A stretch of DNA of 64,000 bases, taken from assembly GCA_965178125.1 (NCBI GenBank), contig OZ237736.1, positions 806,001-870,000 on the forward strand, written 5' to 3'. Both the position numbers and the translations under genes were made by a program. The notes below the pieces were generated by a model that ran no database searches, was not told where the DNA came from, and was given only the letters and a program-made list of their open reading frames with translations. Source of the stretch: Bilabrum cf. latius (lineage: Eukaryota). This document shows positions 28,468 through 59,709 of the stretch, piece by piece (positions within the stretch are counted from its first letter, which is position 1; every line of letters begins with the position of its first letter).

Positions 28468-30624
28468 ATGGGTACATTGTGTAGTTGCGCACAATCAAAG
28501 TGGTGTGGAGCGTGAGAAATGCGATTGGGTGACCGCCCTGTGTGTGCTCGCTTGTACAACGATGTGGCTCCCGTGCGTTTTCCGTAGGCTTCTCCCATGC
28601 GTACTCTCCTCATCCGCAAACCGTGCAGGTATGATCCAGTACCCAGTCGATATTATGAGCGGCAATCGTTCCAGCGAATGGCAGATTTGCTGTTCTTGAC
28701 CGACTCAGACCTTCGAGCTCTGTGGCACGGTTTCAAGACGCTTCGCAAGCGGCGTGGAGACAAGAAAATAAGGGTGCTTGACTTGCTGCGTAAAGCAGAC
28801 ATATCACCAACACCATTCAGTTAGAGGGTGTTTGAAATTGCCGACCTGGCCGGCAAGAAGCAAGTAGACTTTCATGATTTTATCGTTAGCACCTGGAACT
28901 ACTGCACGCTGTCCCGCGACGGACTGATCGAGTTTGCCTGGGATGTGCTGCGAAGTGAAAACAATGGCGAAGTAGAGCTGACAGATTTGCGGCAGCTTAT
29001 CGAAGAAGTTCTGGGGAGTACGATGGGCCAGGCTAGCCGCGAATTTGTAAACGAGGCCGTTGCGCGATCGCCGCACATTGGGGTAACTGGGCGCCAGTTC
29101 TACCTCCTGGCGATCCGTGACGCCGAAATGCTCGCACCGGCGTACTGGCTGCAGGAGCACATGCGCTCCCTGGTAGCCTCCTACGGCTTCTGGCGCATGG
29201 CCACCGAGAAAAGAGCTATGTTCTTAAACAACCAGGCGTGGAAGGACCTCGTCAAGCAGCTCAACCCCCTGGGCCGAGCGGAACCGGGGTCTCTTCCCGC
29301 CGTGTCTGGGACCATCGCCGTTAAGAAAACTGCAGACATGCTCGGTTCGGGGGCCGGAGCAAGTGCTCCGAAGGAAGGCAAGATGCTCGGCAGCGCCGGG
29401 GGGGTGCCCACCATGAAGCCCGGTGGCATGGCCGCGCTGGCAGTCAAGGGGCCGGGAGGCGACAAGAAGACCCGCCGGGGCTCAGCAATGATGCAGATAC
29501 AGAGGCAGGGCAGATCCACCAGGCAACTGGACGGAGACGGTGGTGCTGCCGGTGGTGGTGCTGCGGGGGGCGGCACGTCCACGGTGCAGGAGGCTAGGGC
29601 TCTGATCCTGGGGGCGGGCGCCTCTGCAGCCGCCGAGTCCAAAGCTGGGGGCCCTTCAAGCAGCTCCGGGGACGCCAAACCCATGCGCAGTGAGGTCGCC
29701 AAGTATCTGCTGCCCGACGTGAGGATGGTGCACGTGGCCAATGCGGGAACGGGCGGCTACTACCCAAACAACCCGGAGGCTGCAGAGAGCATGCAGATGG
29801 GCCTCGACTCGCAAACCGCGCTGCAGCTGGCCAATCCGCCCGATGACGCCATCAAGGGCTACTACAGGAGGGCTCGTAAACACAACCTCCCGCAATACGT
29901 GCTTCACACAGACAACAACTCTGACGCTGCCCAGTTCTCAATCCCCGGCGTGGTGGACGGCGTGCGAGGCCGGTGGAGGCACGCCCGCGTTAGGGTGGAT
30001 CGGACCGACAAGATGAACGGCTTGGTGCGCGCGCGAGGCGGCGGATACTTTAGCGGGATGCCGTGCTCGTCGTCCAACGCCGAGCTGGACGGCCGCTTCG
30101 ACGCTGAGATCGTGAGGATCCCGCCCTCGTCCGCCAAGGCCACCCAGGACTTCCTGCGGAAAAGGGGCCTGGCCTCCAGGGCGGGGGATCGCGCAGAAGA
30201 GAAAGACAAGGAGAAGGGCAAGCCATCCACGGCCTCCGTGTTCCGCATGCCCCAGGCGGCAAGGGTGCTGGCTGGGATGCAGGGGCAGAGCGCCGCGCCA
30301 TCCGTGGCCGCCCCCGGGGAGCCCGTTAGGGACTTGCCCACCTACGGCACCCTCAGGGAACAGCACCGTGAGCTGGAGCTGCGCATGAGGGAGGAGGAGG
30401 ACGCTGCGATGGATCGGCAGGACGCTGCGCTTGATGCGCTCGATGAGGTGGACGAGGAGGAACGCGCGGCAGAGGCGAAGCGCAGGGCGAAGATGAGGCC
30501 GGGACGGCTGGCAGCTGTTCAGGAAGAGGCCGGGGACGAAATCAAGGCGAAGATGGCCGCTGAGGCGCATTCCAAAGCGGGGGGTGGCGGCAGCGGTGCG
30601 GCCGCCTCGATCAAGACCGATTGA
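28468..30624 (+). CDS. Calcineurin-B/CBL-like EF-hand protein with N-terminal MGxxCS acylation motif and long low-complexity tail; intron 28512-28628
   Basis: MGTLCSCAQ start; TPFS*RVFEIADLAGKKQVDFHDFIVSTWNYCTL..FAWDVLRSENNGEVELTDL. One in-frame TAG (28822); TGA end. Confidence 0.75.
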
Positions 30625-30786: not shown

Positions 30787-32307
30787 TCATCGCAATCCGC
30801 CCTGCCTGGCAGCCTCCATCGCCTCTGCCTCCTCTTCGCCCCGCTGCATCTCCTCCCAACGCGCCTCCTCCTCCTGCTGCTTTCTCAAAGCCACAGCCTT
30901 CTGCGCTCTCTCCAGCTCCGCCCCCACTGCAGTGCCCTGCAGGTGCCTGCTCTCGTTCCTGTCGAACACGCTGCCCTTGGACCCACCCCCGCCTCTCTTC
31001 CGGAACTTGGCCACGCGCTGCACCACCACGCGCTCCCCTCTGGACAGAGAGGGGCGCACCCCCAGCTTCTTGAGTTCTCTCTGCATTCCCACGACGTCCG
31101 TGGGGAACTGAAACCTGCACAGCTTGCTGCAATTCGTCTGTACCTGCCTCCACAGGGCACGGATGTCCAGGCTGCAGCCCAGCCGGTGCAGGCTCACGTC
31201 CATCGAGGCACCGGCACCGGGCCCCGCTCCGCCGGAAGATAAAGATCCGGCGGCAGAGCCCGGGAATTCGGAATCTGGACGGGCGCGCTTCTGGCCCGCG
31301 CGTGGGCCACGCCTCGCTGCGGAACCAGGCCCAGAATGCGCGGCGCCCCACGCCTTGGCCATGCCCTCGTCGAAGGCTCTCTTCTGCTCCTGCTCCTCAG
31401 TGCTCCACTGGAGCGGTCTATCTGTCGTTACGGTCCTGTCTGGCCCGCCGTGCGGATGCGCGTACATCCACGACTGATGCAGCCTGTGCTTGCCGGTGGC
31501 AGTGGCGCCGAAATGTCCGCCGGTCTCCTTCACCGTGAGTGAGGGCTGGTCCTTGACCTTGCCTCGCTCCATCTCTCGCTCCACCAAAGCTGGTTCGGCG
31601 ATCATGCCTCGCCCGATCGTCATCTTGGCCTTTGCAACGTCTCCCGCAAGCATGGCGCTCTCAGCTGCTTTCTTCAGCTCGCGTGACATCGGGATCGCAT
31701 CCAAAGAAACACGAAAGGGATTCCCGTTCACAACGATCAGTTCGCCTCTGGCTATTTCATCGTCTATGCGTGCGCCCGGCTACAGCTTCAGCGTTCGCTC
31801 GCCTTCTCTGGCAGCGGCAGTGCCGCCAACTGGCACCACCAGCCTGTGGTCGATTTCTCCTCTAGCCGCCATTCCTACTCCCTCGTATGGATCCGCTCCG
31901 AGTCGAGGGAACACCCTGTCTCCAGATTGCCTGTCTAGGCTGTATACTCTGATACACTTGCCCGTGCGAACCAGCTCAGCGAGGTCTTCCTCAGAACCTG
32001 GGTACGCATCCTCAAGGTCCGCCGCGGACAGGCCCCTGGGTGATTTGGCAATAATATTAAGCATATCAACAACATCGTCCAAGATGATAGATGAAACGTA
32101 CCGAATCGTCTGTCGACGAGTTTCAACCTCAACTTTGGGGTTCTATTGCAAGGATTCCAGCAGCTATGCGCGACCAATAATGGGGATCCCAGTTCCCAAT
32201 GCAACTTCTACGAATGAGCACGGCCTTCTATTTGCGGGGCTCTTAATGAATTGAAGTATGCTCTGGATCTGCTCCCCCAGGGGAGCGAACGCTGGGATTG
32301 CCGCCAT
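30787..32307 (-). CDS. TFA2: Transcription initiation factor TFIIE beta subunit-like
   Basis: LLESLQ*NPKVEV, GLSAADLEDAYPG..DLAELV, DIRALWRQV..P..MQRELKKLG, NESRHL. Three in-frame TAGs; TGA 30787. Confidence 0.75.
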
Positions 32308-34685: not shown

Positions 34686-36608
34686 TTTGGATGCAGAGCA
34701 GCGGACGCGGGAGAGACGGATGGGGAGTGGACCATCCCACTTGCCTCATCCTACCTGTACCTCGGTCTACTCATTTCGACCCAACCAGTACGGATCAGCC
34801 CAGATGAAGTAGCTGGGCTGACGCAGGCGAGAGACATCTGGGTAATTGATATGGCACCCCACGTACGCAGGAGGATTGCGATGGCGTACCGGGCGGCCAG
34901 GGACATCACACGAGCGGCGGTGAACGGCAACTGGGCGGTCTCCCTGCACGCCCAGCTGCTCCATGCAGGAGCAATCACGAGTGCATTCTACGGAGCAGAG
35001 GCAGCGGCATGTGCAACAGGATGGGACACCTTGTCAGGATTAGGATATGGTTCCCAAGTTTTCTACGGGATGGAACTGAACCTGGAAGTCCTCAAGATGC
35101 TGGACAAATTCCTGCTGGATACGCGCTGGATGATTGTCAGCGGATCGACACAGGTAAGGCCCTTCACCATGGGCGGTCGATACGTGCCAAACCTTGCGAT
35201 GGACACTGAGCTGCTGACGGCATCGGCAGCAGGGCGTGTTGCTATGGGCCTGCTGGACCTGATCGAGTGTCCCTCGAAGAAGGGCCTTGATGTTGCGGCC
35301 AGGTTCATCCACCAGGGCCGATTCCTGCAGGGACCACCAGTACAGACAGGCCCACTCGGGGCCGCGCTGGCACTGGGATTCAGGATCAAGATGGCAGGGT
35401 GGACCCACCGGATCGATGACGCGAAGGACTGGCTGGGATGCCAGGAGACTGCAAAAAAAGTCACAAAGTGGAGGAAATCCAAATCCGGAGCTGCTGACCG
35501 ATCGTTCACAAGCCTGAGCCTGGGATGCTCGCACGATCCGGCACTGTCGGATTGGGACCGGGAGAGAGCTGCGCTCGGAGTGGTCATGCTTAACCGGTAC
35601 GCAACGAAGGGACGGTATGCCTTCGGACCAGGAGCCATGCCAACAGCAGCGGTGGTGCAGGAATACGGCCACCAAGGAAGACGAATTCTGCGCATCCGAG
35701 CTGGACAATACCCGCAACAGGGCACGCCCAACCTTCAAGTGATGGGCACCGCGGTAGAGCAGATGGAGCGGGCCGAGCATGACCATCATGCCGGAACGAG
35801 ACCGTGGCAACCCGATGATGCGGATCAGAATAGAGGGAGGTCCCCTGCCTCCCTCCGGAAAGCATGGGCGAAGACAGCTCTCGCTCAGGACCCTTGGGAC
35901 GAGAAGCTGGAGCGCACCAGCAGGGCCAAGCCAATCGTCGAAGACGCACTCACTCGGATAGAGCGTACGATTGCGCGGTCATCGGAACGGACAGCTGTCA
36001 AGGAGCTGGCCAACCGAGTGGTGCAGGTGATCAGGAACCAGCTGCGCTAGCAGGAGTAGCTGACGTGCAGGCAGTGGATGCGAGGCGATGCGGCGGCTGC
36101 TCTTGCCGCCACGGCCACGCAAGAGCTGATAGCGGCAACCAATGCGAACGCTCGGCTACAGCGACGGATGTTTAAGCCCCACGGCTTGCTAAGGGACATA
36201 GAGAGGCAATGGGCCAAAGGCATGAGCGCGTGCATGCTAGCCTCTCTGAAGGATCGTGAGACGCAGAGACGGTCATGGAGGAGGAAATGGTGGGTTCCGG
36301 CAGGGGACCCTGATGTGGGACTGGACCGCGCTTTGTGCCGGGCACATGCTCCGCACCTGTATGCTTTCTCCCTGTGAAGGCATCAGGCTGAGGGCTTGTG
36401 GGGGACCACATTGATGGCGAATAAAGGGGACTCGGCGGTGTAGGCTGAGATTGGGGGGCCTTTGGCCTGAAAGGGTCGGGGGTCTTGTAGTCCTTGTTTG
36501 AGGACTCCTCTGGATTCAGGTGATCACTCGAACTCCTTCGGGGGCAACGGTGCATCTGGGTGCTTGTGGAATCTTTACCCAACAATGTATTTCTGTATTT
36601 CTGTATTT
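34686..36608 (+). mobile_element. 5'-truncated non-LTR retrotransposon (LINE), copy 1: RT C-terminus/thumb, C-terminal region, 3' UTR and (TGTATTTC)n tail
   Basis: IPLASSYLYLGLLI (YxYLG), HVRRRIAMAYRA and SAFYGAEA are non-LTR RT C-terminal motifs. The ORF runs through two TAGs to TGA 36377. Tail tgtatttctgtatttctgtattt; flanked by TACCCT. Confidence 0.85.
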
Positions 36609-36614
36609 TACCCT

Positions 36615-38076
36615 CGACACAGGTAAGGCCCTTCACCATAGGCGGTCGATACGTGCCAAACCTTGCGATGGACACTGAGCTGCTGACGGCATCGGCAGCA
36701 GGGCGTGTTGCTATGGGCCTGCTGGACCTGATCGAGTGTCCCTCGAAGAAGGGCCTTGATGTTGCGGCCAGGTTCATCCACCAGGGCCGATTCCTGCAGG
36801 GACCACCAGTACAGACAGGCCCACTCGGGGCCGCGCTGGCACTGGGATTCAGGATCAAGATGGCAGGGTGGACCCACCGGATCGATGACGCGAAGGACTG
36901 GCTGGGATGCCAGGAGACTGCAAAAAAAGTCACAAAGTGGAGGAAATCCAAATCCGGAGCTGCTGACCGATCGTTCACAAGTCTGAGCCTGGGATGCTCG
37001 CACGATCCGGCACTGTCGGATTGGGACCGGGAGAGAGCCGCGCTCGGAGTGGTCATGCTTAACCGGTACGCAACGAAGGGACGGTATGCCTTCGGACCAG
37101 GAGCCATGCCAACAGCAGCGGTGGTGCAGGAGTACGGCCACCAAGGAAGACGAATTCTGCGCATCCGAGCTGGACAATACCCGCAACAGGGCACGCCCAA
37201 CCTTCAAGTGATGGGCACCGCGGTAGAGCAGATGGAGCGGGCCGAGCATGACCATCATGCCGGAACGAGACCGTGGCAACCCGATGATGCGGATCAGAAT
37301 AGAGGGAGGTCCCCTGCCTCTCTCCGGAAAGCATGGGCGAAGACAGCTCTCGCTCAGGACCCTTGGGACGAGAAGCTGGAGCGCACCAGCAGGGCCAAGC
37401 CAATCGTCGAAGACGCACTCACTCGGATAGAGCGTACGATTGCGCGGTCATCGGAACGGACAGCTGTCAAGGAGCTGGCCAACCGAGTGGTGCAGGTGAT
37501 CAGGAACCAGCTACGCTAGCAGGAGTAGCTGACGTGCAGGCAGTGGATGCGAGGCGATGCGGCGGCTGCTCTTGCCGCCACGGCCACGCAAGAGCTGATA
37601 GCGGCAACCAATGCGAACGCTCGGCTACAGCGACGGATGTTTAAGCCCCACGGCTTGCTAAGGGACATAGAGAGGCAATGGGCCAAAGGCATGAGCGCGT
37701 GCATGCTAGCCTCTCTGAAGGACCGTGAGACGCAGAGACGGTCATGGAGGAGGAAATGGTGGGTCCCGGCAGGGGACCCTGATGTGGGACTGGACCGCGC
37801 TTTGTGCCGGGCACATGCTCCGCACCTGTATGCTTTCTCCCTGTGAAGGCATCAGGCTGAGGGCTTGTGGGGGACCACATTGATGGCGAATAAAGGGGAC
37901 TCGGCGGTGTAGGCTGAGATTGGGGGGCCTTTGGCCTGAAAGGGTCGGGGGTCTTGTAGTCCTTGTTTGAGGACTCCTCTGGATTCAGGTGATCACTCGA
38001 ACTCCTTCGGGGGCAACGGTGCATCTGGGTGCTTGTGGAATCTTTACCCAACAATGTATTTCTGTATTTCTGTATT
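36615..38076 (+). mobile_element. More deeply 5'-truncated copy 2 of the same LINE, in tandem
   Basis: Matches 35146-36608 at offset 1469 with about 8 substitutions; same tail; flanked by TACCCTCG. Confidence 0.9.
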
Positions 38077-38335: not shown

Positions 38336-39642
38336 ATGGCCCAAGTAGGAGGCGGTGGATCGTCGGCAGGTGGCGCTGCCATGGGAAGCAGCACAGCCGC
38401 GGGTATCGATCTCTCTTCTGGAGAAGACCCAGCCCCCCCGGTGGAGTTTAGCTTTGCAGATGATCCCAACCCAAAGCATAGGCCCCAAAATGAAGATGCG
38501 CACATTATTACCTGCCTCCTGGAGTCCGAGGAATTCAGTGTGGGCGCCACGGAGGGCGGGGCTGGAGGAAGTGCCGAATACGCGCCGAGATCGTTCGATG
38601 GCTTGAAGACGCCTGGAGCAGGAATTGGAAGCAAGGGAGAGGCATCGGCTGCCATTCGATAGTCCGGGTCGTTCACCGGATTGGAGACTTACAAGGATGC
38701 TGCGTCAACTCAGTTTGCCAAGGGCGGCGCGCTTGCTCGCTCGTCCAGGTCGAGCGATAAGGGCGCCAAAAAGAAGACCCAGCCTTTAGCCGCCAGATTA
38801 GTAAGACCAATTCACATGTTTGCGATCTTAGATGGTCACGGAGGCAAGGCGTGTGCCGCGTACTGCGCAGAAAAGCTAGTCGAGGTCTTGCAGCAGAAAC
38901 TGTGCAAGCACAAGCGATGGGCCTCGGCCTTGCCGGAGGCATTCCAAGAAACAGGTAAGCAGATTGCAATGCAACAAGTCCGTTTGCAACAGGGATTCCC
39001 TGTTTTCGTCCGCAGTCTCTTGGTATCGCTGCGCCCCAACCCGCACGCGCCACGATACTCCATGTCAAAGCCTGGTCCAACCGTTGCCCCGCAGATAGGC
39101 AATTTCATCGGGCCATGCCCAAGGATACGAGCGGGTCCACCTGCGCCGCCGGCATCATCCACGGCCACGGCGAAAAGCGCGAGCTGGTGCTCGCCCACGT
39201 GGGCGACAGCCGGATCGTCGTCTGGGACACTGAAAGCGGGGGGGGTCACGCCAGGAGGCTGACGACTGACCACACACCAGCAGTCAGAGCAGAGGTTGAC
39301 CGCCTGGAGTCGGACGGCGGCTTCGTGGCGCGCGGTCGGGTGATGGGGGTGCTGGCGGTGACCCGCGCGTTCGGCAACTGGGAGATGAAGAAGCAGAGCC
39401 CCTCGCACCCAGACGTGAGCAGGATCCGGCTCGGCCTGCCGCCCCCGAAACGGTCTGATCGATTCCTGATCATCGCGTGCGACGGCCTGTGGGACGTGAT
39501 CTCGGACACGGACGCGTGCAAGGTGGTCCGCGCTCACCTCAAGAAGGGGGGCAGGCCCGAGCTCGCTGCCAAGGTGCTCGTCCAGGAGGCGATGGCGAGG
39601 AGAACCACGGATAACGTGACTGTGCTCGTTGTTTACTGCTGA
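38336..39642 (+). CDS. Protein phosphatase 2C (PPM family); intron 38955-39094
   Basis: RPQNEDAH, FAILDGHGG, SGSTCA, AHVGDSR, DHTP, LAVTRAFG, FLIIACDGLWDV, DNVTVLVV. TAG 38660 lies between the EDAH and DGHGG motifs. Confidence 0.92.
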
Positions 39643-39981: not shown

Positions 39982-41916
39982 ATGTCGCTGTGTTGGTGCG
40001 TGGGGGAGTGTTCGTCGTCGGAACGCAGTCTGGCGAGACTGTTTGAAACTCCTGTTGTTCTCAACAGGGCGGACACCTCAAGCGCAGCCTCGTATCAAAT
40101 GTTTGGACCGGTCATAATTACTTGTTTGCTGAATGCTGCACTCGCTGTATGCGTGGGGCTGCCCATGGAAGGGAGTGGACCCTGGAGGTGGTTGCTGCCA
40201 AACCCTGGAGCAAGCGGCGACGGGATCCTGGGTGATCCAGCAAGGCGGACGATTGATACCCTGATCAACACCTCTGTTCTGATGGGTGCCGTAGTAGCTA
40301 CGACATATTTCTTCGCCTGGCTCTACATGCTTCAAGCTAGACGGTTCATGGTTGCATTCTTGGTTGCTGCGCACCTCTTTTGGTTTGGGCTATTCACTTT
40401 TTACCTGTTGGCCATTGCCAACAGGCACTGGAAGTGGCATTTGGACTGGATCACGGCCATACTAGTATCGTGGTGGGTTTCCGGTGGGCTCACCTTTGTC
40501 CTCTTCTTTGAGTATCCCTTGGAACTCCCCCGGCGCACGGTCTCCTACCGCCTGCGCCCGTCCAGGCTAGCACACGACTGGGTGCTGAGAGCAAACGGAG
40601 TGGCACAGTCAGCCTTAAGCCTGCGCCGGTACACCCTGCAGCTGGCATCGATGAATGGTCTGCGGTAGGATGAGGTCTCGAAGCTCCTGCCGCGCGATGC
40701 CCACGTCGCCGTGTAGAGAGCCACGAGACACCTGCCCGGCCCGCCGTGGAATCGACTGCAATGCCAGTGCGGCATGTTTGGACGTGACCAGGAGCATATG
40801 CTGCAGGAAGCCGATCGGATCGAGAGAGAGGTGAACGGCCGAGCATTGACCGCGGAGCAACTGCTCGTGGTGCTCCCAACTGCGCTGCAATGCGCTGCAC
40901 GAGCCCCACACGACCGGGGCAGTGCTAGTGCGCACAATGTAGAACCGCTTACCAATACGTCTACTTCGTAGTACCCGCCTGGCGGTACTACATCTCTGTA
41001 GGAGCTGTAGGGAGCAGAGATTCAAGCAGTGCCTGCAAGCGCCAGCACTAGTGCAGCTGTTGTCTCGCCCAGGCAGGTGCGTCCGAGGCGTCTGGACACC
41101 GAATGCCCCGGACACGCGTCGCAATCACCAAGTGCTTCTACTCGCGCCAGCATTGCGGGGCATGAAACCAGCAGCGGCGGCGGTGATGATGCCGAAGCTG
41201 CGGCCGAGGTAGCTCGTCTGGCCGAGGGCTTCTGGCAGCAGCAGATGGACCGCACGTTTCCAGAGCCTGAGTCGCCACTCGTCACACTGCGCCGGTCTCA
41301 CTTGTCCTGCTAGAACATGAGCCTTTGCCTTGGTGCCGTGGTGCTCGGCTGGCCGTTCCTCTGCTTCCCCGAATGGACCTTGTGGAGCACCGTGGTGGCA
41401 CTCATCCTGTGGGACATCGTGGCTGTGCTGACACCGTGCGGGCCGCTCGGATACATCATGAGACAAGAGACAGAGCGGGCACGTTTGCTGCAGAACCGAG
41501 CGTTGCGCAAGCAGCAGCAAGAGAGGGAGGGGCAGCCGACAGTAGAGGCGGAGCGGCAAGGCCAGGGTGGAGAGGAGAATGCAGGGGAGGAGGAGGGGGA
41601 GGCGGCACTGCCTGGAGTTGCGATGCCGCCGGGGCTGTTGTACGAGGGTGACCTGTTCCGGCTAGGGACCGGGGACATGCTTTTTTTCTGTGTGCTGGTG
41701 GGTCGAGGCGCCATGGCTGGTTGGGAGGTCTTTGTGATGGTGCAGGTGGCGGTCTTGGCTGGTCTCGCGGTGACCATCGGGTTGTCATTTGCGACCAAGA
41801 TGGTTGTGCCGGCGCTCCCCGCTGCGCTGGTCCTGGGAATTCTGGCGTACTTCCTCGGGACATTTGCGGCTTCCGGCTTCTTCGGGTGGTTGCAGAGCAG
41901 AGGATACGGGATGTGA
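39982..41916 (+). CDS. PSEN: Presenilin (GxGD aspartyl intramembrane protease)
   Basis: LDWIT, PEWTLW..WDIVAVLTPCGPL, RLGTGDMLFF, PALP. About 6 in-frame TAGs in a large TM4-TM5 insertion and at the start of TM5; TGA end. Confidence 0.9.
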
Positions 41917-42092
41917 GCCCTTCTTCGGGTGGTTGCAGAGCAGAGGATACGGGATGTGAGCCCTTCTTCGGGTGGTTGCAGAGCAGAGGATACGGGATGT
42001 GAGCCCTTCTTCGGGTGGTTGCAGAGCAGAGGATACGGGATGTGAGCCCTTCTTCGGGTGGTTGCAGAGCAGAGGATACGAGATGTGAGCCC
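41877..42092 (+). repeat. 43-bp tandem repeat x5 spanning the presenilin stop codon
   Basis: CTTCTTCGGGTGGTTGCAGAGCAGAGGATACGGGATGTGAGCC at 41877, 41920, 41963, 42006 and 42049. Confidence 0.95.
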
Positions 42093-42187
42093 TTGGTGAC
42101 TGAATTGAGGAACGTCTGCCAGAGTCGGCTGCTCTGCAAGTACAAAACTATTGAGCACCAATTCATGGCATCAAGCCAATCACTGCG

Positions 42188-43531
42188 TCATCTTGGCCGT
42201 GGGCGCTTCGTGCCAACGGTTAGCCTGATGGTCGGGCCCTTTCCCCTCTAACTGGAGTCTGGGCCACCTCCCGCTGTCTGCTCCGTCGCAGCACCGCCAG
42301 CTGTCCCAGCTGCAGCAGACGCATGCTCCCCCACTCGCATTTTTTTGCTCGAGCTAGGCATCGATCGATTGCTCGCAACGGCAGCAGAGGCGGCTCGCAG
42401 CAACCCGGCGCTACTCTGCCGCCCCACGGGCCAGGTGCGCAGTGCCCGCATGGCGAGTGCTCGCCTGCTCGCTGCGAGCACTTGCTTGCTCACTCCCCCG
42501 GCCCGCAGCGCCTCCTTAGAGTCGTGTCCCATGCGGTATTCCCTATCCCTGCCTTTGACACTCTTGTTCCCTGCCTTCACTGATGACCCTGCCTGCGCAG
42601 ACTGCTCGCCGCCCATGCGCTCCCCGTAGGCCGGCGTGAGAGTAAAGCTGCGCTTGGCAGGCCTTGATCCTGCCGCAGCACCCATGTTAATAGGTGCACC
42701 GGCGATGAGCTGGGGAGGTGCTACCATGGGCAACGTGAGCTGCGCGACGCGTGGATGCGCTGCGCCGGCTCCGCCTGTCTAAGCATCGTGTTCCTGTGCG
42801 GCAGCAGCTGCGTCAGTTAGTGCAGCCTCAAGCTCGCGCAGCTTGTCGCGGGTCTCACGCTTAATCTCTGCTTCTAGCTGCGCTGCTATCTCTGCTACGT
42901 CTGTTTTGAGCGGGATCGCAGCCTACTTCTTTGCGCCTTCTTGCAAGATTCGTTTACGCTTCTCTCGGGCGGACTGCTCCACTACCATTCGCCTTAGCCG
43001 GTCGTCACGAGTGACACGAATATGAGCTTGTAAAGCCCGGCTGTCTTCTTGCTTCTTTCTCGCCGCCTTCTATATGTCTGCTCGATTGCTCGCGAGCTCG
43101 TCTGCCATCTCCTTCTTCGCTTCCTTGACGTTGATGCCGTCGGCCAGCCATCGAATAATCCTTTCACGTTTTTCTTGGTACTTGTCCCAAGCCTAGTGTG
43201 CCTCAAGGGTGCCTTCGCCGTGCATGTCTTCAAAGTCCGAGAGGCTCTTGCTGAAAACACGGCCAGCCTCACGGCGCACCTGGACCTCTTTTTCAAACTA
43301 AGCCGTGTTTGCATCCTTGGTCTTCAATTCATGACGGTAAAATCTTTTCTGGCAGTGCGGGCACAAGACCTGTGAAGCGCGTGATAGCTCGCGGTTGCTG
43401 CAACGAACACAAACCCGGTGGGTGCAAGGCGCCGTGAGAAGCTTTGCTTCTGGATCCAAGTAATTGTGCCCATTCCCATCACAGCTCCAGCAATGCTCCA
43501 GCGCGTGTTCGACTAGCGCATGAGAGCTCAT
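42188..43531 (-). CDS. MNAT1: CDK-activating kinase assembly factor MAT1 (TFIIH Tfb3)
   Basis: RING CWSC..YLDPEAKLL..CTHRVCVRC..CPHC, then *FEKEVQVRR..VFSKSLSDF..WDKYQEKRERII; C-terminal RAGG..RRALA. About 6 TAGs; TGA 42188. Confidence 0.85.
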
Positions 43532-43640
43532 TCATAGACCTCGCAGTGCAGACTAACCCCAAAATAAAAAAAGCGCACCGGAATCTTGAGGCTTTTTCCG
43601 GTTTGGCTCCCGCTTGCCGCCGCCGGCGATGCGCCGCGTA

Positions 43641-46600
43641 TCATGATGACGACCCCTGCCTGAGCTGTACGCGCCTTGGCTTTGCTTTACCGGACAATAA
43701 TAGCTCCTTGCCGCTCTAGGAAGGCTTGCATCTCCCTGACGCGGCCTCATCACCTGCTCGCTTCAGTGCGGAGGACACGATCGCAGCGGCGACGTCACGC
43801 GCCCCCATCGGCTTAGAGAACACATTGTCCAGGCCGGCAGCGCGAAACTCTGCCAGATCCTCGGGGAGGGCATCTCCGGTCAGCCCGATAATCAGCAGCG
43901 AATCGCCGAACCTTCGCCGGAGTTCCCTGGTGCACTCGATGCCCCCCATGACGGGCATGGATCGATCCATGAGCACTGCGAAGGCCACCTGCTCGCCGTT
44001 GTCGCTGCTGTGCGTCGCACCGGCATCAGCACCGCCTCTTGCAGCTGTGCTCGTTGACTACCTGCTGCCCGTGCCCCTCTCGCTCCAGCTGACTGCCCCG
44101 AACCCCCTCACCGCCTCAGACTGGTCAGACACGGACCGCGAGGGCTCGAGTCCACTCACTCCAGGCGCACTAGTGGCTGCGCCGTACTGACCGGGCCTTG
44201 ACTCTTCGTATCCTCTTCTGAAACCACCCGACTTGTCACGGTGCCGCCGTCCAGATTGCCCGCGTTCTACCGGATTCGCATCTAATGAAGCGTCTCGTTC
44301 TTCATGTCTGTTGTACTGGGCAGATAAAACACCACCCTCCACGATGGCAGAGTCTATTGACGTAGCATTGTGGCCGCTGCAGCCCTCAGGACGAAGTGGG
44401 TGCCCGCGGGCGAGGGCCATGACCTCACTGCTTCGATCCAGGCTTGGAGTTGTTCTCAGGGACCTGCCTTGCCCAGTCCCGAGGATGCCCTCACTTGCAC
44501 CTGCACTGCTTGCGCCTGCTGGCATTGTCTCACTGGACCCCAGCCCTCCCGTGCTGCCGCCACTGCAGCCTTCCATTTGGCCGGAGGATGCTACAGTGAT
44601 TGCACCGGCTATACCAGTCGACTTTAGGTGATACGTCTGCTAGTCACTACAGGTGATACTGCCCGGCTCGCTTGACCCTATGGCACCCCCTCTACGCATG
44701 CTCGATTGCTGCCTCTCACGCGTGCTTGTATTGGTCGCGTGCTTACCACCAGCTGTTTTTGCCCTCTATGATCCGTTCGAATGAGCCGTGGGGTAGCTCG
44801 TGGCCTCAGTAGCTTCGAGTGTCGGCTGACCGAGCTGCGTTTCGGGGCGGGAACGGCCTGTACCATGCTGGGAAGCTCCATGCTGCAAGGCCACCATCAC
44901 TTCGTAAGCCACTTTGATCGCGTCTGACCCATTCTCGGCCTCGTGCACCACGAATCCTTCGCGTGTCAGTCCCTTGCACATCAATGATCTACCAATGCGT
45001 TCGTCATCTACCACCAAGACATGCCTACTCACAGACGCCTCTATGGGCTAATCCCGTACCGCTCTCTGCTCTGAATCGCTTGGACCTCGAGTCGCCCGTT
45101 TCTTGACGCGGCGTCGCTTCGTCGCGTGATTCCCAGGAACGTTCATACTTGGCAGCTTACTGTTATTTGCCTCCAAACGATGCACGCCCTGAAGCGAACC
45201 TAGAGATCTCGAGCCGGCACTGTGTCCACGCAACGGGCTGGCTGCAGGCCCAGCTACAACAACTCCACCATGGAATTCCACTTCACCACGCGTCTCATCA
45301 CCCTCCCGAGGAGCCATCGCTCCGTTCCAAGGCGTGTCGCCGCGGTAGGAAGACTTCGATTCGGTCGCACTGCCGGTGCTTGCCTTGCTCGCAGCTCCAG
45401 CATCACTAACAGGTACGGACGGCATCACCAGGCTGCCTGGGTGGTCACCGGAGGAGCTGCTTCCGTGGTCGCGCTGGAGGATCGCTGCAGAGAAGTCAGA
45501 CTGGCTATCCCAACTTCTCTACTCGCACGGCGCCGCTATCAATTGACCAAGTCCCCCGTTGGCCTGGATCACATGTCTTGATTCGCCTGCAGTCGGTAAC
45601 TCGGATGAATCGTACGGTCCCTAGAGCACTAGTCCGCACCTGACCCTGGCCTCGAACAATGAACCGGTGCTACGCGTGCTGACGACGCGCAAGTCACCGC
45701 CGTGCTACCGAGCAATGCCACGGGAAATGAAAAGACCCATCCCAGTGGACTCCCGGCCAGGCTGCATTCCCAGAACACCCTCTGCGAATGGATCGAAGAG
45801 CGTCTCTAGCGCTGAATCGCGAATCCCTGGGCCTTTGTCACTCACTGTGATAGAGAGCGTAGCACTCGATGAGGGACTAGGAAGCAAATAGCTGCCGTCA
45901 GGACTGCTTGTGCCTGGCTGCGTATTAGTGCCGGCGTGGCTCGCACGGATTGCACCAAACGGCCCCCAGCACGCATCGTGCTGCAGCTCGCGAATGCCAA
46001 CGATGACCCTGGACCCCCGCGCGGAGTACCGGATAGCGTTTGAAACGAGATTTGTGACGATTTGTTGCAGTCTCTGGGCGTCGCCAACCAGCTTCGCGTG
46101 CATGATATCTTCGTCGTGCACTTCGAGCGTAATTCCAGCGAGGTGGGCATGCCTGGCATGCACCTTCAGTGCCCATCTCCCCAGCTGCCGCCTCGGGTCA
46201 AACGCCGCCTGAACAAGCCGTAGGCGCCCTCGTTGCAGCCGTTCGGCATCAAGTACGTCGTTGAAGATCCTTCGCATTGACGCGCACCCTTGCACCAGCT
46301 GCTATGCCACGCCCTGCATGTCCATGAGACGAGCCCTTACCTCGGGCATGTTACACTGCGACACCACGCCAAGCTGATCTTCTATTGCTTGTTGTGGCTG
46401 ATAGGAGCCGGGAATCAATATGCCCGGGCCACCTGGTTGAGATGAATCGTCCGACAGCTGGATCTCTGATGCATGCGACCGCCTCACTGGGAAAGACCTG
46501 CTGTCCAGTACCCGCTCAATCCCGGTGCAACGCAGCATTGACACACTGTCCCTGCTACGATCGCCCAGCCCACCACCAGATTTAGCCATGCTTACCACCG

Positions 46601-48180
46601 TCGTGTCAGTATCCACCGTAGAATCAACCTGTCCCCGCTGTGCAGCAACTGGAGTCGAGATACTGCGGTGCACCGCGGGTATCGCGACCCCTTGCCGCTG
46701 CCTGGCTCTTGCCAGAATCCCGTTTGAGCTGCCAGGCGAGGGAGTCCCCTGGCCGCGAGCCAATCTTTGAGCACTGGCAGGACCAAACCCCGGCCGCCCA
46801 GCTGGCCGGTTGTCGTGCACTCTCGCAGGCGCAGCTGCATCCACGATCTCTATGGCGTCGTGAAGGCTGATTTTGATCTCCTGGCTGCCGAGGTGCACTG
46901 CCTGCAGCGGAACCCTCGCTTCGTGGAAGACGTATCTGAGAAACTGCTGCACGTGCTCGATCTGGCTTCGGGCGGCCTTGGCCCTCCAACTGTGCATCTC
47001 CCAGGCCAGCTCTGTCTGTACTGAAAGCAGCACCAGAACGACCATCCAGAAATACAACATTGCAGACAATACGTCCATGATAATGTTCAGCCGCTCTTCT
47101 TCTGATTCGCTCAAGCCCATGGCCCTGGGCACTATGTACAGCAGTGTCCGAACGCACAAGTACGCTGCGTACACAACAACAGCAACCTGGCCTCGTTCCC
47201 AGGCCTGATCCGAGCTCTCTTTGGTGCGACTGGTCAAATCGGCGTGGATTGGGGGCTAGACACTAGACTCATGACTTTCTAGGGCGGCGCTTGTTATTCT
47301 GCCCTGCTACGAATGTCCAGCAGGTCCCGCTTCGACCCGAACTCTAGACAAGCAGCAGAAGCCGCCTGCACCAGCTGCTCTTCTCGGTCTCATTCGACTA
47401 CGGTGCACACATTCTGTGTCTGTAAAATGTGAAATTGCGGGCCGGAGTGCTGCTGCAACAGATGCTGGCTGTGTCAGCAGCATCCTCGCAATTGCCCACA
47501 CTATCCCGATCGCCCCGAGGCAAAAAAAGACTGCCTGCTACCATATCCCAGTCCCAGCGACAATGGACAATAATGGAAATAAAGCGTAGGTTGCAATACT
47601 CTGCGCTACTAGCATCAGATTCGAGCCGGAGGAGCCATATCCTGGTGGCTACGCAATGTGCTGAATCAGCCATGCTGACTAAAGTTCCATTTGAATCACG
47701 ATCAGGCTTCTATCTGTGCACTACGACCTCCCTCCCAAATCTACCCCGCATGAAGATATGCCTACGCCGCGATATGCGAAAACGCTGGCGAGCTGCGATC
47801 ATTGCGCGAGAACTCGATTTTCAGGATGACGTAAAAGAATAGTTGAACGAGCTGCAAATGACACATGCTCAAGAAAATTACACCTGAATCTCACGCCGAT
47901 AGTCTGCACTGCAACGACTCGTGCTACACGCGCGAGCTTGGACTCCCCAGTTGCTGTGACCAGAAACACCGCCGCGAGTGCCCACATCCCGTGCATGATG
48001 GCAAGCCCAATTCCCATCGCCTCAAACGTATCATGCCCTTCTACATACATATCACGTCTGCTTTTCGCGACCTTGGCCGATGCAACGCCTACATCTAGGG
48101 CACATGAAAACGTCGTCAGCGCCGTTATGCTAGCTGCCACCAGGAAGGAACGAATGGCTGCTGAAAGCCACTCCCCAGCG
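43641..48180 (-). CDS. Hybrid sensor histidine kinase: multi-TM opsin-like N-terminus, HisKA, HATPase_c, receiver; at least 1 intron (~47794-47894); start uncertain
   Basis: FLRYVFHEARVPL, GDAQRLQQIVTNLVSNAIRY, VSDKGPGI, GMGLFISRGIAR*HGG, VLVVDD..MDRSMPVMGG..GLTGD..KP. Six ORF-track fragments share one frame linked by TAGs; TGA 43641. Confidence 0.85.
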
Positions 48181-48755
48181 AGTACTTTGTTTCATAGAAT
48201 ATGATGTATGCTTCAGTCTTTATAAAATGTCTGGTACTGTACTCAGGATTGAAGTCGTGTCCCAACCTGGTCGTCCAATTGTGCGAAAGTGCCTCTTCAC
48301 TTTGTTGGTTAGCGGCCGTTGGGTAGCAAAGTGCGGTCGCAGCAACCGGCTCGTCGCCTGGGACACGTGGCATGTCCAGCTAAGCTTAACCGTGGGTTTT
48401 CGCCAACATCTGAGCAAGAGGCTGACTCGCAGTACGCATCAGACAGTGTGGCATTGGCACTGCGTGCACCTGCTCTTGCTCGCTACGCTGCACCGCCACC
48501 TTGGAGGCAGCCTCTCAGGCTGCCAGTGAGCTCGTTCGCCGGCAGGCCAGCTGCAACGCAGCGCGTTGGCACAGCACGTCTGCACAATAGCTGAAATTCC
48601 TCCGAGCTGTTTTCATTGGACTCGAAGACGGCGACTGCACGCACTGTTCACCATAGATCTACAGGAAGGCAAGGATGATCCGATCATTAAGTGCATTCCA
48701 CTGTAGTGCAACGTGTGTGTGGCCAGAATCGGTGCATTGTGCTTCTTGAGCGTAA

Positions 48756-51700
48756 ATGCTCACACTAGAAAGTATTGCGAGCAATTCTTGCAGATTCGGG
48801 ACGTTAACGGTAGCTTTCGCAGGTCTGTGCGCAGGATGCCTCATTTTTGCAGCGGCGGGAGATCTGGCGGTATCCAAATATCTCGCAGCTTCAGCAGCCC
48901 TTGTGGCGGTCCTTGTGTGGCTCTATTCATTTTTGAGTTATTTAGTCCTATCAGGTAAGGACTCCATAGTGCTACAGCCAGCCCAGATAACACCTGTCGA
49001 CCGCTACGTTGATGAGACCAGTGATGTAGAGGACCACTTCTCAGGGATGAGCGCCTCTTGCGTTGCCAAAACGATTCGGGATTAGAATATAAGCTGTAGC
49101 TAGTACGTGGAATCTGCGATCGCTCGGCTTTGTTCTGCGAATTAGGAGCTAAATTGCGTGACATCGGAGCGATTCGAACTTGCCAGAGCCGAAGCAAGAC
49201 AAGTGGACGCAGCTCTAGCTGGAATTAATGCAGGAGATCAAGATGCGCACATGTTGCTAGAATCTATTCCAGGGCGCCCATCACCTGATGCGCCGTTCCT
49301 GGGCGTCCCCACCACCATCAAAGAGTGCCTCGCAGTGGACGGGCTGCCGCAGACTGGTGGCCATGCTCCTCACGACCCTTGGCACGCCCTCGCTAGGATG
49401 TCTGCTGCTACGGATGCGACCGCAGTCGCGAGGCTGAGAAAGGCAGGCTTCATCGTGATCGGATCAACGAACCTCAGCGAACTGTGCCTATGGTATGAAG
49501 CCTCGAATCCAGTCCATGGAGTGACGGCTAATCCTTTCGACGTTCACAGGACGTGCGGAGGCAGCAGTGGCGGCGAGGGGGCTGTCGTAGGCGCAGGAGT
49601 AACCCCTTGCGGGCTAGGCAGTGACATCGGCGGCAGCATCCGAATGCCTGCGCACTTCTGCGGCGTGTTCAGTCACAAGGGGACCGGAGGCCTGGTGCCA
49701 AACACGGGCCAGCTGCCGTACGGGCCCACCAGGCTGTGCACGACAGGTCCCATCGCATCCCACGCCGAGGATCTTTGGCCCATGCTTGTGGCCATGGCAG
49801 GATCGGACGGGCTGGATGCCTGCTGCAGGGCCCGCTAGCTCATCCCTTGCGGAGGGGACCGGCGGCAACCAGATCAGCCAGCAGGGGGCAGTGATGACGA
49901 GCCACAGGCACAAGTAGCAGGGGGGGTTGTTGGCCAGCAGGCAACCTCTGGGGCTCGAACTGCGACCAACAGTGGCGTGGACAGGCCGAGCGAGAGCCGC
50001 CGTGCCGGCGTCGGTCCCACACGGGATGCTCAGAGCACCGCCGGGACTGCGGCAGGAAAAGTCGCCAGTGGCAAACAGCAAGGCGATAAAGATCAGGCTG
50101 CCGACGATGCGAATGAAGCAGGCGACCGGTCCGATGCCCCCAGTTCAGTTGGGTTGGAACTGGGCGAGGGGAGGCGAGCACCGGCGGAAGGCAGGGGCAG
50201 TGGCAACGGCAAGGATGAAGACGGAGAAGGTGACCAGGCGGGTGGACAGGGCGACTCATCTGCAGCGGCAAGCAGCGTTGGCAGCGGCAGAGTGCCCTCT
50301 GGCAACCTATTTCGGCAGGCGTACACGAAATCGACAGTCAATAGCCGGGACAATTCGCCGGTAGCTGACGCAGATGATGTTGTGATGCCACCCTCTGACG
50401 AGGAGGAAGACTTGCATGACACGACAGTGTTCTCTCGCGTGTCTCAGGCAAAGCTCAAGGGCGATGGGCCTGCGCGGCCACAGGATGGCGGCACTGCGAG
50501 CACGCAATCAGGTGGTGCCGTCTCTAAGGATCCCGAAGAGCGGGCATCCGGGAATCAATCAGAGGAAGAGAGGGCATCACTGTCGTCATCGACCCAGCAA
50601 CAATCGTCGGCAGAGTGTTCATCGTCGTCGTCATCCTCCAGCAGCTCGATCCGGCGTAAGAGCGCATCAGCTGTCAAGGTAGAGGCGGCTGCCTCCAGTG
50701 GGGGTGCTGGCAACCGGGGCGGCTCTTCCGGTGGCGCGGGCGTAGTAGACGAGGCGACGTCAAGTCGGCTGCACGCATCGCTTGCAGCGGCTGGCATCAT
50801 CGCGCCGCGCCCCGACTCGAACGGGAAGAAATCGAAGTCCGCGTCCTCGAGAGGGGCCAAGCCACTTCGGGTGGCATTGAGGAGATCGCGGGGCTCCAAG
50901 CCGGCCCGCAAGGGCAAGTTCGTTTCCGACGGCGCATCCGTATTCCCTCTAGAAATGGACGAGCTGCAATCAGCCGACGCAGACGCATTGGGAGTGCTGT
51001 AGGAGCTGGCTGGGAATGATGCGGATGCAAGCGGCGACCGCGTTACTAGTCACCGGGCAAGCCAGAACGTCATACAGTCAAGGCTCGACTCGAATGGGAA
51101 GATCCACTTTACAGAGCTGGCCAGCAGACCCAGTAGCGGCGAGGCTAGCAGAGACGAAGAAGACTCTGACCGCGAGGAGGATGGCGCGCCCGCTGCAACG
51201 GACCAGTGGTCCCTGGCTGTGGCCGGCCTCGACGGGAAGGAGCTAGGATCTGCCAGTGATGAGGAGGAAGGCGATGATGACCCGCCTTCGGCTTCGACAA
51301 ATTATATCCGATCAAGCGATGATCTGCTCAGGGCGCCCTTCCAGTCGTGTGGCATTGCACAGCCGAGCGTGACTCGCGAGCAGCTAGCGGCAGGCTCGCT
51401 CAAGAAGCCAGCACAGGTAGCTGCATGGACGGGCCCTGGAAGCGGGAAGGGCCGGACCAACCCGCCCCACGCGCTTCGAACAATGCCTGGAACAGTATCG
51501 GCACATCGTCACGTCGGGTAGCCGCTGCTGCCGGTGAGAAATGAATCGAAGCTAGCCCCAATGCCAGGCAGCCAGGAAGAGAACCATTCCAGCAGCTAGT
51601 CACGGAGACGTCACAGGAGGGGCAGCAGAGCACGGCTTGTCGTTCACTCCGACAGCTCCGGGGAGGACTCCGATGGCCGAGGTGATGCTACCCGGCGGCC

Positions 51701-53657
51701 GTCGCAGGGCAGACCCTCTCTGCACCTTGGTAGGCAAGGCGACCTCGACGACGAGGACGACGAGGACGACGAGGTGTCGCCGGGCTCGTCAGGCTGGGGC
51801 GAACAGCCAGTGGTGGACGTGCCAGGCACACCCGCAGACGTGGACCTCAGAGACATCGAAGTGCTGCTTCCTGCGCAGCTGTTCCACCCCGACGCATAGA
51901 AGCGTGTGACGCCTCCGTTGACCACCCCGGTCGACGACAGGTACAGGAATGCGGTTCTGCTGGCGGCGCGTCGGTTGGTAGACCGGTGCGGCTGCAAGGG
52001 GCCATACCTGGTGCACCTGCCCGGCTGGGAGCAGCAGTTCGACCTCTGGCAGGGCATGCTGGCCGATGACCGCCTCTCTGGATTCTAGAGGCTCTACTCG
52101 AGTGACGATGCCGGTATCACCACCTGCACGGATCGGGCAGTGGCACTGTGCACGTCATGCTCGCTGTCGCCAACGGAATCTAGCCGGAGGTGTCTGGACG
52201 CCGGCCGTGTGATGTGCATCTGTGCACTGCCGCGCTTGGTGGCGTGGATAGCGTGCGCAGCCGCGTTTGACCTCTACTCCTTCGTCCGAGCTCTGCTCGA
52301 GATGAGCGTGCAGCTGTGCTGCGGAGCCGACCCAGTCGCGGTCGCGACCAAGCGTCCGCAGGAGCACAGGCTCTCTACCTGTGGTCGCTTCTGCGTCCGG
52401 CTGAGTGCGTGCGGGGCGGGCAGCGGTGCAGCCTGGGAATCAGCCGGTGCGCCAGTCCTCACGTCTACAGATGGATTCGTGTCTAGGCCCGGATACCGGG
52501 CCCCGGTCCAGCACCCTGCAAATGCAGCAGACAAGCAGGCACCAGCTGCGGGTGCCGAATGGCGATCGGTTCTGCAGCTGCCAGCCGGCTTGGGTGACGG
52601 TCCAGCGCATGCCCCGCCTCTGATGGGCAGGCCAGACACGGCCGATGTGTCTGGCCTCAGCACTCCCGTAGCGCGCGAGATCGGATCCGAAGATGAAGAG
52701 GACACCGAGGGCAGCGAATCGGCGTCTGTTCCGGGCAGCACGAGCGGCGTGGCAGCTGAGGGAGGGACTTCGCACCAGGCAGACAACACGGCACAGGTTT
52801 CATCGGGACTGCGTGGCAGGTGGTCACACCGGTGCTGCCGGACGACTTTTCCAGCCCTGGGCCTGGCCCTCATTGAGACAATCTTCAGCGAGTGCCTGCC
52901 CTGGATCGATCGGCGCGCGAAGCTTGTCGGGCGCCGGGCCAGGTACCATCTGTCCAAGACTCTGCGGGAGCGTCGGGCCGTTGTGCTGGTGCCGACCCAC
53001 CCCACACCCGCCCCCGTGCACGGGCTCGCACTGTTCCGCCCCACCAACGCGGGATACACAGCGTACTTCAACGCGATGCAGACCCCCGTCACTCAGGTCC
53101 CAATCGGGTTCCTGGGCATGCCTCTGTCCCTTGACGAAGAAGGGGTCCAGGGCGCGCTGGAGGCGGCCAGCACGTCGCGCGCGTGTGCCAACGCCAGGAA
53201 GGTGCACCCATGGGCCTCTCTTCCCGTGGGAGTGTCGGTGGTCGGGCCCATCGCGCACGACCACTGGACCATTGCAGTGGCGCTTGCGCTCGAGCGTAGG
53301 TGCGGGGCAGGGTGGGTGCCGCCTCCGCTGGCTGGTCCACAGGCGGCGACGCGAGTTCTTGAGCGTGTGTACGGCGTGAGCAGTGAAGTCGGGGCACTTG
53401 GTAGATCTAGTAGCAGCGGTGACGACAACGGCGGGATTGCAAGGGGTCGCCGTGCAGGCAGCAGCGGGCACGAGGGCTCCCGTGCCTCCCGCCCGTTGGC
53501 ATCCGCCAAGACGATGCAACGCGGACAGGTGCAGCCGAGGGAGTCCGGTGGCAATGCGAATTCCGTATCTGTAGGCAGCGGGCATCGAGGCAGCGGTGGC
53601 GACAGCTCGACCAGGCGGAGGGCGGGCAGCAGGGCCCGGCAAAGGAGGAGGGATTGA
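48756..53657 (+). CDS. Amidase-signature family enzyme (FAAH2-like) with N-terminal TM and very large low-complexity insertions
   Basis: PFLGVPTTIKE, GGSSGGEG, GLGSDIGGSIRMPA, YTAYFNAMQTP, LPVGVSVVG. About 9 in-frame TAGs; TGA 53657. Confidence 0.88.
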
Positions 53658-53728
53658 GATGGCGACAGCTCGACCAGGCGGAGGGCGGGCAGCAGGGCCC
53701 GGCAAAGGAGGAGGGATTGAGATGGCGA
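53598..53728 (+). repeat. 63-bp tandem duplication spanning the amidase stop codon
   Basis: ggcgacagctcgaccaggcggagggcgggcagcagggcccggcaaaggaggagggattgagat x2, plus a partial third copy. Confidence 0.9.
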
Positions 53729-53816
53729 CCTATCTGTTTGCGCAGACCTGTACGTGATTCATGCATGCATCCCAATGGCAGACGTTATTCAACTGTCGCA
53801 GTATCCGGATTCCGGA

Positions 53817-54998: not shown

Positions 54999-55006
54999 TC
55001 CAATTT

Positions 55007-55411
55007 TCACAGCAGCTCTCCCGTGAAATGCACTGCCAGCCAAATCGCTGGCTCCGGGTTTTCTGTATCTTTTGGGCCTCCTGATGTGTACGTCACCTTG
55101 TGCTTCACACCTTGCGGGATGATCAGGTAGTCTCCGCGCCCGAGTGGTCGTTCCTCGCTTTCAGATTGGATCCGAAGCTTTGCTCTGCCTGACACAAGAA
55201 TCACAAATTCGTGATCTTTCTGTTCAAACCACTCGGAACCGTCGCTGGGCGCCGTTTGTCCAGTGCTGGTGATCCACTGCACCTGGGTTGAATCCCCTCC
55301 TCGGGCGTTCACAAGCTGCTCGAACTGCTCTTGGTCGAAGGGCTCACTCTTGCTGTTTAGTATGGAGCCTGCCTAGACCGTGCTGTATTTGGAGGGCGCT
55401 GCTTCGGCCAT
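55007..55411 (-). CDS. Small cupin-domain protein (bacterial-type Cupin_2 family)
   Basis: WITSTGQTAP..WFEQKDHEFVILVSG..LGRGDYLIIPQGVKHKV..IWLAVHF. ATG 55411 with one in-frame TAG; intronless; TGA end. Confidence 0.8.
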
Positions 55412-55419
55412 CAGAGGGG

Positions 55420-59500: not shown

Positions 59501-59709
59501 GCCTGCCGCTGTGACGAAAGAAAGCGACCCAATCGATGCCCCAGGCATGGGTGCACACGAATTGAAATTGCTTTGTAGTCGTTCATGTCACTGACAGTCG
59601 CCCAATGAGATGCATCGAGGCGTACATTTGCTCGCGTCCACAGTCGCCCCGGCCTCGACAAGCGTGATATACCCGACCTCAGCATCCGAGGCACGGAATA
59701 AGCACGCAT
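56545..59709 (-). CDS. ~1054-aa P-loop NTPase + PD-(D/E)xK-like nuclease (Crinkler/RHS-type effector architecture), intronless
   Basis: Walker A VVGAKGVGKS, Walker B ILLLDE, C-terminal KADLVAV..IRAQVT. 3165 nt with 7 TAGs and no TAA/TGA until TAA 56545. Confidence 0.72.

Follow-up and report, generated by a model that had tools for sequence, protein, structure and literature searches.

TAG is read as glutamine in NCBI translation table 15. A change of UAG alone to glutamine, with UAA kept as a stop codon, is described for Iotanema spirale (Fornicata), for Protocruzia tuzeti and for two phyllopharyngean ciliate lineages (PMC5304391, PMC11687900). For Iotanema it is argued that the anticodon CUA is the only one that reads UAG but not UAA (PMC5304391). 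A change of both UAA and UAG to glutamine is given for many ciliates, Hexamita, Streblomastix, Ulvophyceae and Amoeboaphelidium protococcarum (PMC11687900, PMC6299283). Other meanings described for UAG are leucine in the rhizarian exLh, serine in Scotinosphaera, and glutamate, either with UAA read as lysine (an uncultured ciliate) or as UAR in Blastocrithidia (PMC5304391, PMC11687900, PMC12153298).

The window is the whole stretch of DNA analysed here, 64,000 nucleotides in length. An earlier note on it proposed that TAG is a sense codon, with glutamine favoured and glutamate not excluded, and drew attention to one TAG codon in a presenilin gene. The analysis presented below strongly supports the view that UAG is an ordinary glutamine codon in this organism, with a probability of about 0.9, as judged from sequence comparisons. 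Locations of the features discussed are shown in Table 1. In all translations given, X stands for TAG.

Table 1. Location of genes, TAG codons and the intron discussed in the text (positions in the window)
Feature	Position	Strand	Remarks
Rtf2 TAG, residue 70	20240-20242	minus	Q in P0003; CAA (Q) in L001
Rtf2 TAG, residue 53 (IDXLG)	20291-20293	minus	Q in P0003; CAC (H) in L001
701-codon gene, 87% identical to L001 orthologue	28519-30624	plus	two CAG opposite L001 TAGs
TPFSXRVF TAG, residue 102 of the 28519-30624 gene	28822-28824	plus	CAG in L001, local identity 0.95
TFIIE-beta-like gene	30787-32307	minus	six CAG and one AAG opposite L001 TAGs
TFIIE-beta TAG, residue 55 (LQXNPKVEV)	32143-32145	minus	TAG in L001 too; only shared TAG site found
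PP2C-like ORF TAG, residue 109	38660-38662	plus	CAA (Q) in L001
Presenilin gene, 644 codons, 6 in-frame TAGs, TGA end	39982-41916	plus	Pfam PF01080, E-value 5.8e-38
Focal TAG codon	41311-41313	plus	residue 444 of presenilin ORF; context SHLSCXNMSLCLG
Intron, 102 nt, canonical GT..AG (GTGAGA...CAG)	47793-47894	minus	skipped in X5 and X7 contigs
Amidase TAG, residue 361	49836-49838	plus	Q in P0006
P-loop-like gene, 1054 codons, 7 TAGs, TAA end	56545-59709	minus	distant-homologue control

In-frame TAG codons and terminators

Seventeen open reading frames of the window, with a total of 13,082 codons, contain 84 in-frame TAG codons. TGA and TAA have no internal occurrence in these reading frames and are found as terminal codons only: all 16 complete open reading frames end in TGA (13) or TAA (3). 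The two off-frames of the same 17 reading frames display 449 TGA, 212 TAG and 86 TAA triplets. The in-frame TAG pattern far exceeds chance. When TAG is read through, open reading frames reach up to 2,138 codons; the long ones break into pieces under table 11. Genes that carry TAG include presenilin, amidase, Rtf2, MAT1, RPE65 and histidine kinase genes, all confirmed by Pfam. TAG is therefore an in-frame codon and not a terminator in these genes, TGA and TAA terminate, and, as described below, TAG exchanges with CAG and CAA between relatives. Annotation of the genome requires that TAG be translated as glutamine, because nearly every long gene fragments under the standard code.

The window open reading frames have 84 TAG, 381 CAG and 120 CAA codons, and TAG would constitute about 14% of the glutamine codons if it encodes glutamine. 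Were TAA to stand to TAG as CAA stands to CAG (120:381), about 26 internal TAA codons would be expected; none is observed. The three open reading frames that end in TAA have the next TGA only 7, 25 and 13 codons further on, and for two genes of a related contig (L001, see below) the terminator is TAA, whereas the orthologues in the window have TGA. Thus TAA is a genuine terminator, beyond mere rarity.

The sequence contexts quoted in the earlier note are all present: GAXQHHHAMQQ at positions 9381-9383, WTPEXIEDW at 58897-58899, GSGSXKRKK, STEXGDG, HSSSXSRRR, CSXYVE in the amidase, TPFSXRVF, IDXLG in Rtf2, and AQQXGG in a SUMO-like fragment on the minus strand (62013-62249). This last is a C-terminal fragment that ends in ...VIEVFAQQXGG, with TAG immediately before the di-glycine. 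The open reading frame looks partial, and thus the gene may contain an intron. A tandem TAG pair (FRVFXXNSQ) is found at positions 63191-63196, within a 3′-open reading frame that starts at 62648, has 5 TAGs in 451 codons and shows no Pfam match.

Two other open reading frames, 34851-36377 and 36668-37846, have an identical C-terminal segment of 392 residues with the same two TAGs, and the antisense open reading frames are duplicated as well. The pair represents either a tandem duplication of recent date or a repeated element; it gives no Pfam match, and the syntenic part of L001 lacks it.

A search for tRNA genes in the 64-kb window and in L001 gave none, there is no Rfam match in the window, and an eRF1 gene is not among the genes of the 64 kb or of L001.

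Public sequence runs and splicing

Three other studies provided four further public runs, the contigs of which were compared with the window over positions 39982-59981. They show no differences from the window in genes, and there is no polymorphism at TAG codons among the four sets of contigs over this region. These runs are filed under three other organism labels. As the identical sequence is found in them, the window organism therefore occurs in samples labelled otherwise, as a companion, a parasite or a contaminant.

The 102-nt intron listed in Table 1 is the sole intron seen in the 20 kb compared, and is located upstream of the histidine-kinase ATG at position 47690. Contigs of run X6 retain it. 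Contigs of X5 and X7 skip this canonical GT..AG intron and thus appear to behave like spliced RNA, the basis for this being the one spliced joint.

The presenilin gene and the focal TAG

The focal TAG was found to be in frame, as the earlier note had stated, at residue 444 of the 644-codon presenilin open reading frame, which also matches the PDB presenilin-1 and presenilin-2 sequences. It is situated at the start of the transmembrane helix that precedes the PEWT motif. The earlier note had placed this codon opposite the first Gln of LQQAYL in presenilin-1 (PS1). That alignment is reproduced when a 7-sequence profile is aligned with PDB presenilin-1; a plain pairwise HMMER alignment misses the site because it begins at residue 456. 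As evidence for glutamine the column is weak: PS1 has Q, and the five nearer homologues that cover the site have L, L, S, N and T. A search with the C-terminal half of the protein yielded a 65%-identical relative (P0127) that begins after the focal site, and no close relative among those found spans residue 444.

Directly between the PS1-like PLEL sequence and the focal codon there is an insert of 261 residues (residues 183-443; positions 40528-41310), which is absent from PS1 and from homologues with 35%-40% identity (P0128-P0130). Since the insert holds five of the six presenilin TAGs, an intron ending in ...CTGCTAG at the focal codon was considered. This was rejected, as the frame stays open and the spliced-looking X5 contig keeps the insert; that contig spans positions 39982-41906 with no gap and no difference. 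Because the contig appears to behave as spliced RNA and yet covers this region, both the insert and the focal TAG would be expected to stay in the mature message.

A tandem repeat with a 43-bp unit (5.1 copies, 99% matches; positions 41877-42094) begins inside the last codons of the presenilin gene. Each copy repeats the presenilin C-terminal ...SRGYGM and the TGA stop.

Distant homologues and sequence context

TAG columns were examined in distant homologues of several window genes. In 120 amidase homologues, the four TAG columns display R62/G49; E57/D27/A25/Q5 (residue 116); P103; and P36/E23/A19, and the summed BLOSUM score over the four columns has the order P > E > Q. The MAT1 TAG sites are opposite E/T, V/gap, M/Q and E/A in the yeast/human structures. 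An alignment of RPE65 with the PDB sequence shows P at one TAG site and a gap at another, and Rtf2 gave no match in a search against PDB.

The 1054-residue protein encoded by the P-loop-like gene yielded 53 fragmentary matches with 31%-76% identity. A local identity of at least 0.5 is reached by 8 pairs, located at 3 sites, with R in three, L in two, I, M and P in one each, and Q in none. Log likelihoods (lnL) relative to the best residue on those 8 pairs are R 0, M -0.1 and Q -0.4, with R, M, Q and L all within 0.7. Over 41 pairs at 7 sites, which are non-independent, the values are R 0, Q -3.8, K -5.1 and E -20. Substitution counts from this set itself were used, and ordinary Gln is self-conserved just 25%-32% in it. 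All 53 matches are cluster representatives and all are fragments, of 59-465 residues; the protein belongs to no Pfam family. Such a set is compatible with a lineage-specific family of many copies, in which gene prediction stops at TAG.

In these comparisons the columns that hold TAG are variable, and distant homologues are thus uninformative as to which residue TAG encodes. The tabulation of consensus residues at TAG columns of conserved homologues, proposed earlier as a way to decide, gave variable columns and no answer when carried out from the window. Sequence context does not help either. There is no Gln enrichment within 3 residues of TAG (0.78x background, vs 1.63x for Gln around Gln), and the Gln/His-rich tract at 9381, which had been cited in favour of glutamine, is therefore an anecdote and not a pattern. 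The earlier note's own arguments for glutamine, among them the presenilin column and the Gln-rich context, are weak.

The amidase (48756-53657) is FAAH2-like and is split. Its N-terminal half is at residues 118-354 and an apparent C-terminal amidase part is near the end, the two being separated by about 1,000 low-complexity residues. Full-length homologues are at best about 50% identical, and where a source is named, as it is for few of them, the label is Deltaproteobacteria, Myxococcales or Sorangium.

Exchange of TAG with CAG and CAA in close relatives

A search with the Rtf2 sequence gave as relatives P0003, a Logan fragment listed with 97% identity, and P0002/P0126, which are 58% identical. 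P0126 was located on a JGI metagenome contig. An alignment of the Rtf2 proteins was used for a metagenome scan, and this led to the contig L001. L001 has a length of 11,669 nt, a GC content of 55%, and is syntenic with the window. It carries five orthologues of window genes with 32%-87% identity: that of the 28519-30624 gene (87%), the PP2C-like open reading frame (75%), TFIIE-beta (61%), the 32471-34249 gene (32%), and Rtf2. Over 2,419 codons it contains 23 in-frame TAGs, and its five genes end in TAA (2) or TGA (3). Because L001 also uses TAG in frame, and has one TAG site in common with the window, the reassignment of TAG is common to both organisms and older than their split.

In the window, Rtf2 and the 28519 gene are 8 kb apart, and most of this distance is taken up by an 88-bp satellite of 62 tandem copies (96% matches; positions 22398-27860), which is C-rich on the plus strand. 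The corresponding gap in L001 is about 230 nt.

The five orthologue pairs were compared codon by codon. They contain 12 window TAGs and 23 L001 TAGs, 35 in all, seven of which are unaligned; the others make up 28 distinct aligned sites. One site, in TFIIE-beta, has TAG in both genomes. Partners at the other 27 are Gln (12), Gly (3), Ala (2), Ser (2), and His, Ile, Pro, Lys, Thr, Asp, Glu and Val (one each). Sites were kept if the 10 residues on each side, taken together, showed a local identity of at least 0.5 and no fewer than 14 of them were aligned. By this threshold 11 sites were dropped, eight in the 32%-identical gene, two in Rtf2 and one in TFIIE-beta, with partners Q (1), G (3), S (2), and A, I, T, D and E (one each).

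At the 16 sites kept, the partner of TAG is Gln at 11, and His, Ala, Pro, Lys and Val at one each; Glu is found at none. Thus five of the 16 well-aligned partners are not Gln, which counts against glutamine, and the proportion that are Gln (0.69) matches the self-conservation that ordinary Gln shows in these alignments (0.69). The Gln partner codons are CAG and CAA. CAG is a single transition away from TAG, as the earlier note remarked. Of 112 Gln codons, 11 have TAG as their partner, compared with none of 188 Glu codons (Fisher p = 1.4e-5), and if TAG encoded Glu the probability of at least 11 Gln partners in 16 would be 3e-11. With a substitution matrix counted from the same five alignments (2,880 residue observations), lnL at the 16 sites is -32.7 for Gln, -55.2 for Glu, -64.0 for Lys, -67.4 for Arg and -92.2 for Leu. 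Glutamine is therefore ahead of Glu by 22.5 units, of Arg by 34.6, of Leu by 59.5 and of Ser by 88.4.

Two protein fragments point in the same direction. In 91 coding residues there are three differences between P0003 and the window, namely one K/R site and two TAG sites, both of which are Q in P0003; its 5′ leader has diverged from that of the window. As the coding part is otherwise nearly identical while the leader is not, P0003 is a distinct close relative, in which differences between TAG and Gln codons act as silent changes. P0006, a fragment with 77% identity, has Q opposite residue 361 of the amidase, at the edge of the alignment. The strong evidence for glutamine comes from these two fragments and the one relative contig, L001.

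The preference for glutamine expressed in the earlier note is borne out, mostly by way of these relatives (11 of 16 sites in L001, two sites in P0003, one in P0006), and its reservation about glutamate is largely lifted by the L001 partners and likelihoods. Three sites had been singled out as compatible with Glu. Two of them are resolved: TPFSXRVF has CAG in L001, and the TAG of IDXLG in Rtf2 is matched by Q (P0003) and by H (L001). The third, CSXYVE in the amidase, is covered by distant homologues alone, namely by the residue 116 column given above.

Alternative readings of UAG

If UAG encoded glutamate, the meaning of UAR in peritrich ciliates and in Blastocrithidia, the residue 116 column of the amidase, where E is the most frequent of the residues in distant homologues, would find an explanation, as would the E of yeast Tfb3 opposite MAT1 residues 78 and 204 and the single Glu partner in L001. 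This partner lies in a stretch of 0.20 local identity; none of the 16 well-aligned partners is Glu, none of the 188 Glu codons counted has TAG opposite, and the likelihood at these sites is 22.5 units below that of Gln. Glutamate is disfavoured in the distant 1054-residue set too (-20), and P0003 and P0006 have Q at their three sites. A meaning of glutamate is thus extremely unlikely. It may also be asked if the residue is a different one (Arg, Lys, Leu, Tyr or Ser), the Gln partners reflecting only the origin of the TAGs by mutation from CAG. Arg is marginally the top residue in the distant 1054-residue family, and hydrophobic residues are opposite WTPEXIEDW (I, L, V) and opposite the presenilin site (L, L). 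In the L001 alignments, however, sense codons pair mostly with their own amino acid (self-conservation 0.55-0.96), and at the 16 sites K is found once and R, L, Y and S never, with likelihoods 31 to 88 units worse than that of Gln. Further, both genomes use TAG and share one TAG site, so that TAG codons are not all recent mutations; the reassignment predates the L001 split. Another residue is therefore very unlikely, if a shade less so than glutamate.

The alternative to which we would give slightly more room, though it too is improbable, is that TAG has a mixed meaning, i.e. that it acts in part as a terminator with read-through or is decoded by more than one tRNA, glutamine being the main product. 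Four open reading frames have their last TAG close to the end, at a distance of no more than 20 codons: 3 codons (the 12551-14722 open reading frame), 14 and 19 codons before the stop in the window, and 5 codons before the stop in the 3518-5527 open reading frame of L001. At 6.4 TAGs per 1000 codons, chance alone would place a TAG in the final 20 codons of about 2 genes out of 16. Nearly all TAGs are followed downstream by conserved domains whose translation is required, among them the catalytic GxGD region of presenilin and the core of the amidase, and 16 of 16 complete open reading frames end in TGA or TAA. Finally, the chance that the TAGs are not translated at all, being located in introns or pseudogenes or resulting from assembly errors, is close to negligible. 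The concentration of presenilin TAGs (five of six) in an insert of 261 residues without a PS1 counterpart is in line with this, as is a pyrimidine-rich stretch before the focal TAG that resembles a 3′ splice site. Against it, reading frames of as many as 2,138 codons are interrupted by no 'stop' other than TAG, runs from three other studies are identical (0 differences), contigs that splice out 47793-47894 keep the presenilin insert, and the relative L001 shows the same usage of TAG.

Proposed decoding of UAG

With UAG read as glutamine, UGA would be the main terminator of this organism and UAA a minor one. A single C/T transition, without effect on the protein, would turn CAG into TAG or the reverse, and TAG would thus stand where relatives have CAG or CAA. 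Most TAGs would occupy moderately conserved Gln positions, the TAG at 41311 being one of these. By analogy with described systems, UAG may be decoded by a tRNA-Gln with the anticodon CUA that arose from tRNA-Gln(CUG) and is a substrate of GlnRS, and eRF1 may have lost recognition of UAG but not of UAA and UGA.

Comparison with known genetic codes

The type of code proposed here, UAG alone changed to glutamine, is already known; its carrier may be a new lineage. The features of the window organism do not, in our impression, resemble those of a ciliate. Among the literature covered, which does not extend to subscription journals, no GC-rich non-ciliate eukaryote with UAG-only glutamine was found. 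It is possible, but doubtful at present, that the window organism and L001, with 54%-87% protein identity, the same use of TAG and one TAG site in common, belong to an undescribed clade of GC-rich, intron-poor eukaryotes in which UAG was independently reassigned to glutamine and UAA and UGA were kept as stops. If true, it would extend UAG-only changes to glutamine for the first time beyond ciliates and fornicates, and for the first time to a genome of high GC content, for which the usual account of stop codon capture by AT pressure fails.

UAG-only reassignments are rare, and each new one has a bearing on the question of whether UAA and UAG must change together. High GC content, together with UGA as the main stop, is an unusual setting for the capture of UAG. 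With regard to approach, the amino acid was settled, at the probability given at the outset, from one 64-kb window by comparing codons one by one with those of a close relative in which the code is the same; the conserved columns of distant homologues gave no answer.

The window has the same amino acid, and presumably the same route by way of a suppressor tRNA-Gln, as the codes in which both UAA and UAG are glutamine (table 6 type). It differs from these in that TAA is never internal (0 in 13,082 codons) and ends 3 of 16 genes in the window and 2 of 5 in L001. As in exLh and Scotinosphaera, UAG is a sense codon in nuclear genes while UAA remains a stop; in contrast to exLh, Scotinosphaera and Blastocrithidia, the residues found there, Leu, Ser and Glu, are respectively 59.5, 88.4 and 22.5 lnL units below Gln here.

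The closest similarity is to the type seen in Iotanema, Protocruzia and the phyllopharyngean ciliates: UAG alone is found in frame, UAA and UGA terminate, and UAG sites correspond to Gln in orthologues. As in Iotanema, a tRNA with anticodon CUA would be the expected decoder. The window differs from this type in its GC content of 56%-67%, its long and nearly intron-free genes, the dominance of UGA as stop codon (13 of 16), and its gene content, which includes hybrid histidine kinase, RPE65-type oxygenase and presenilin genes.
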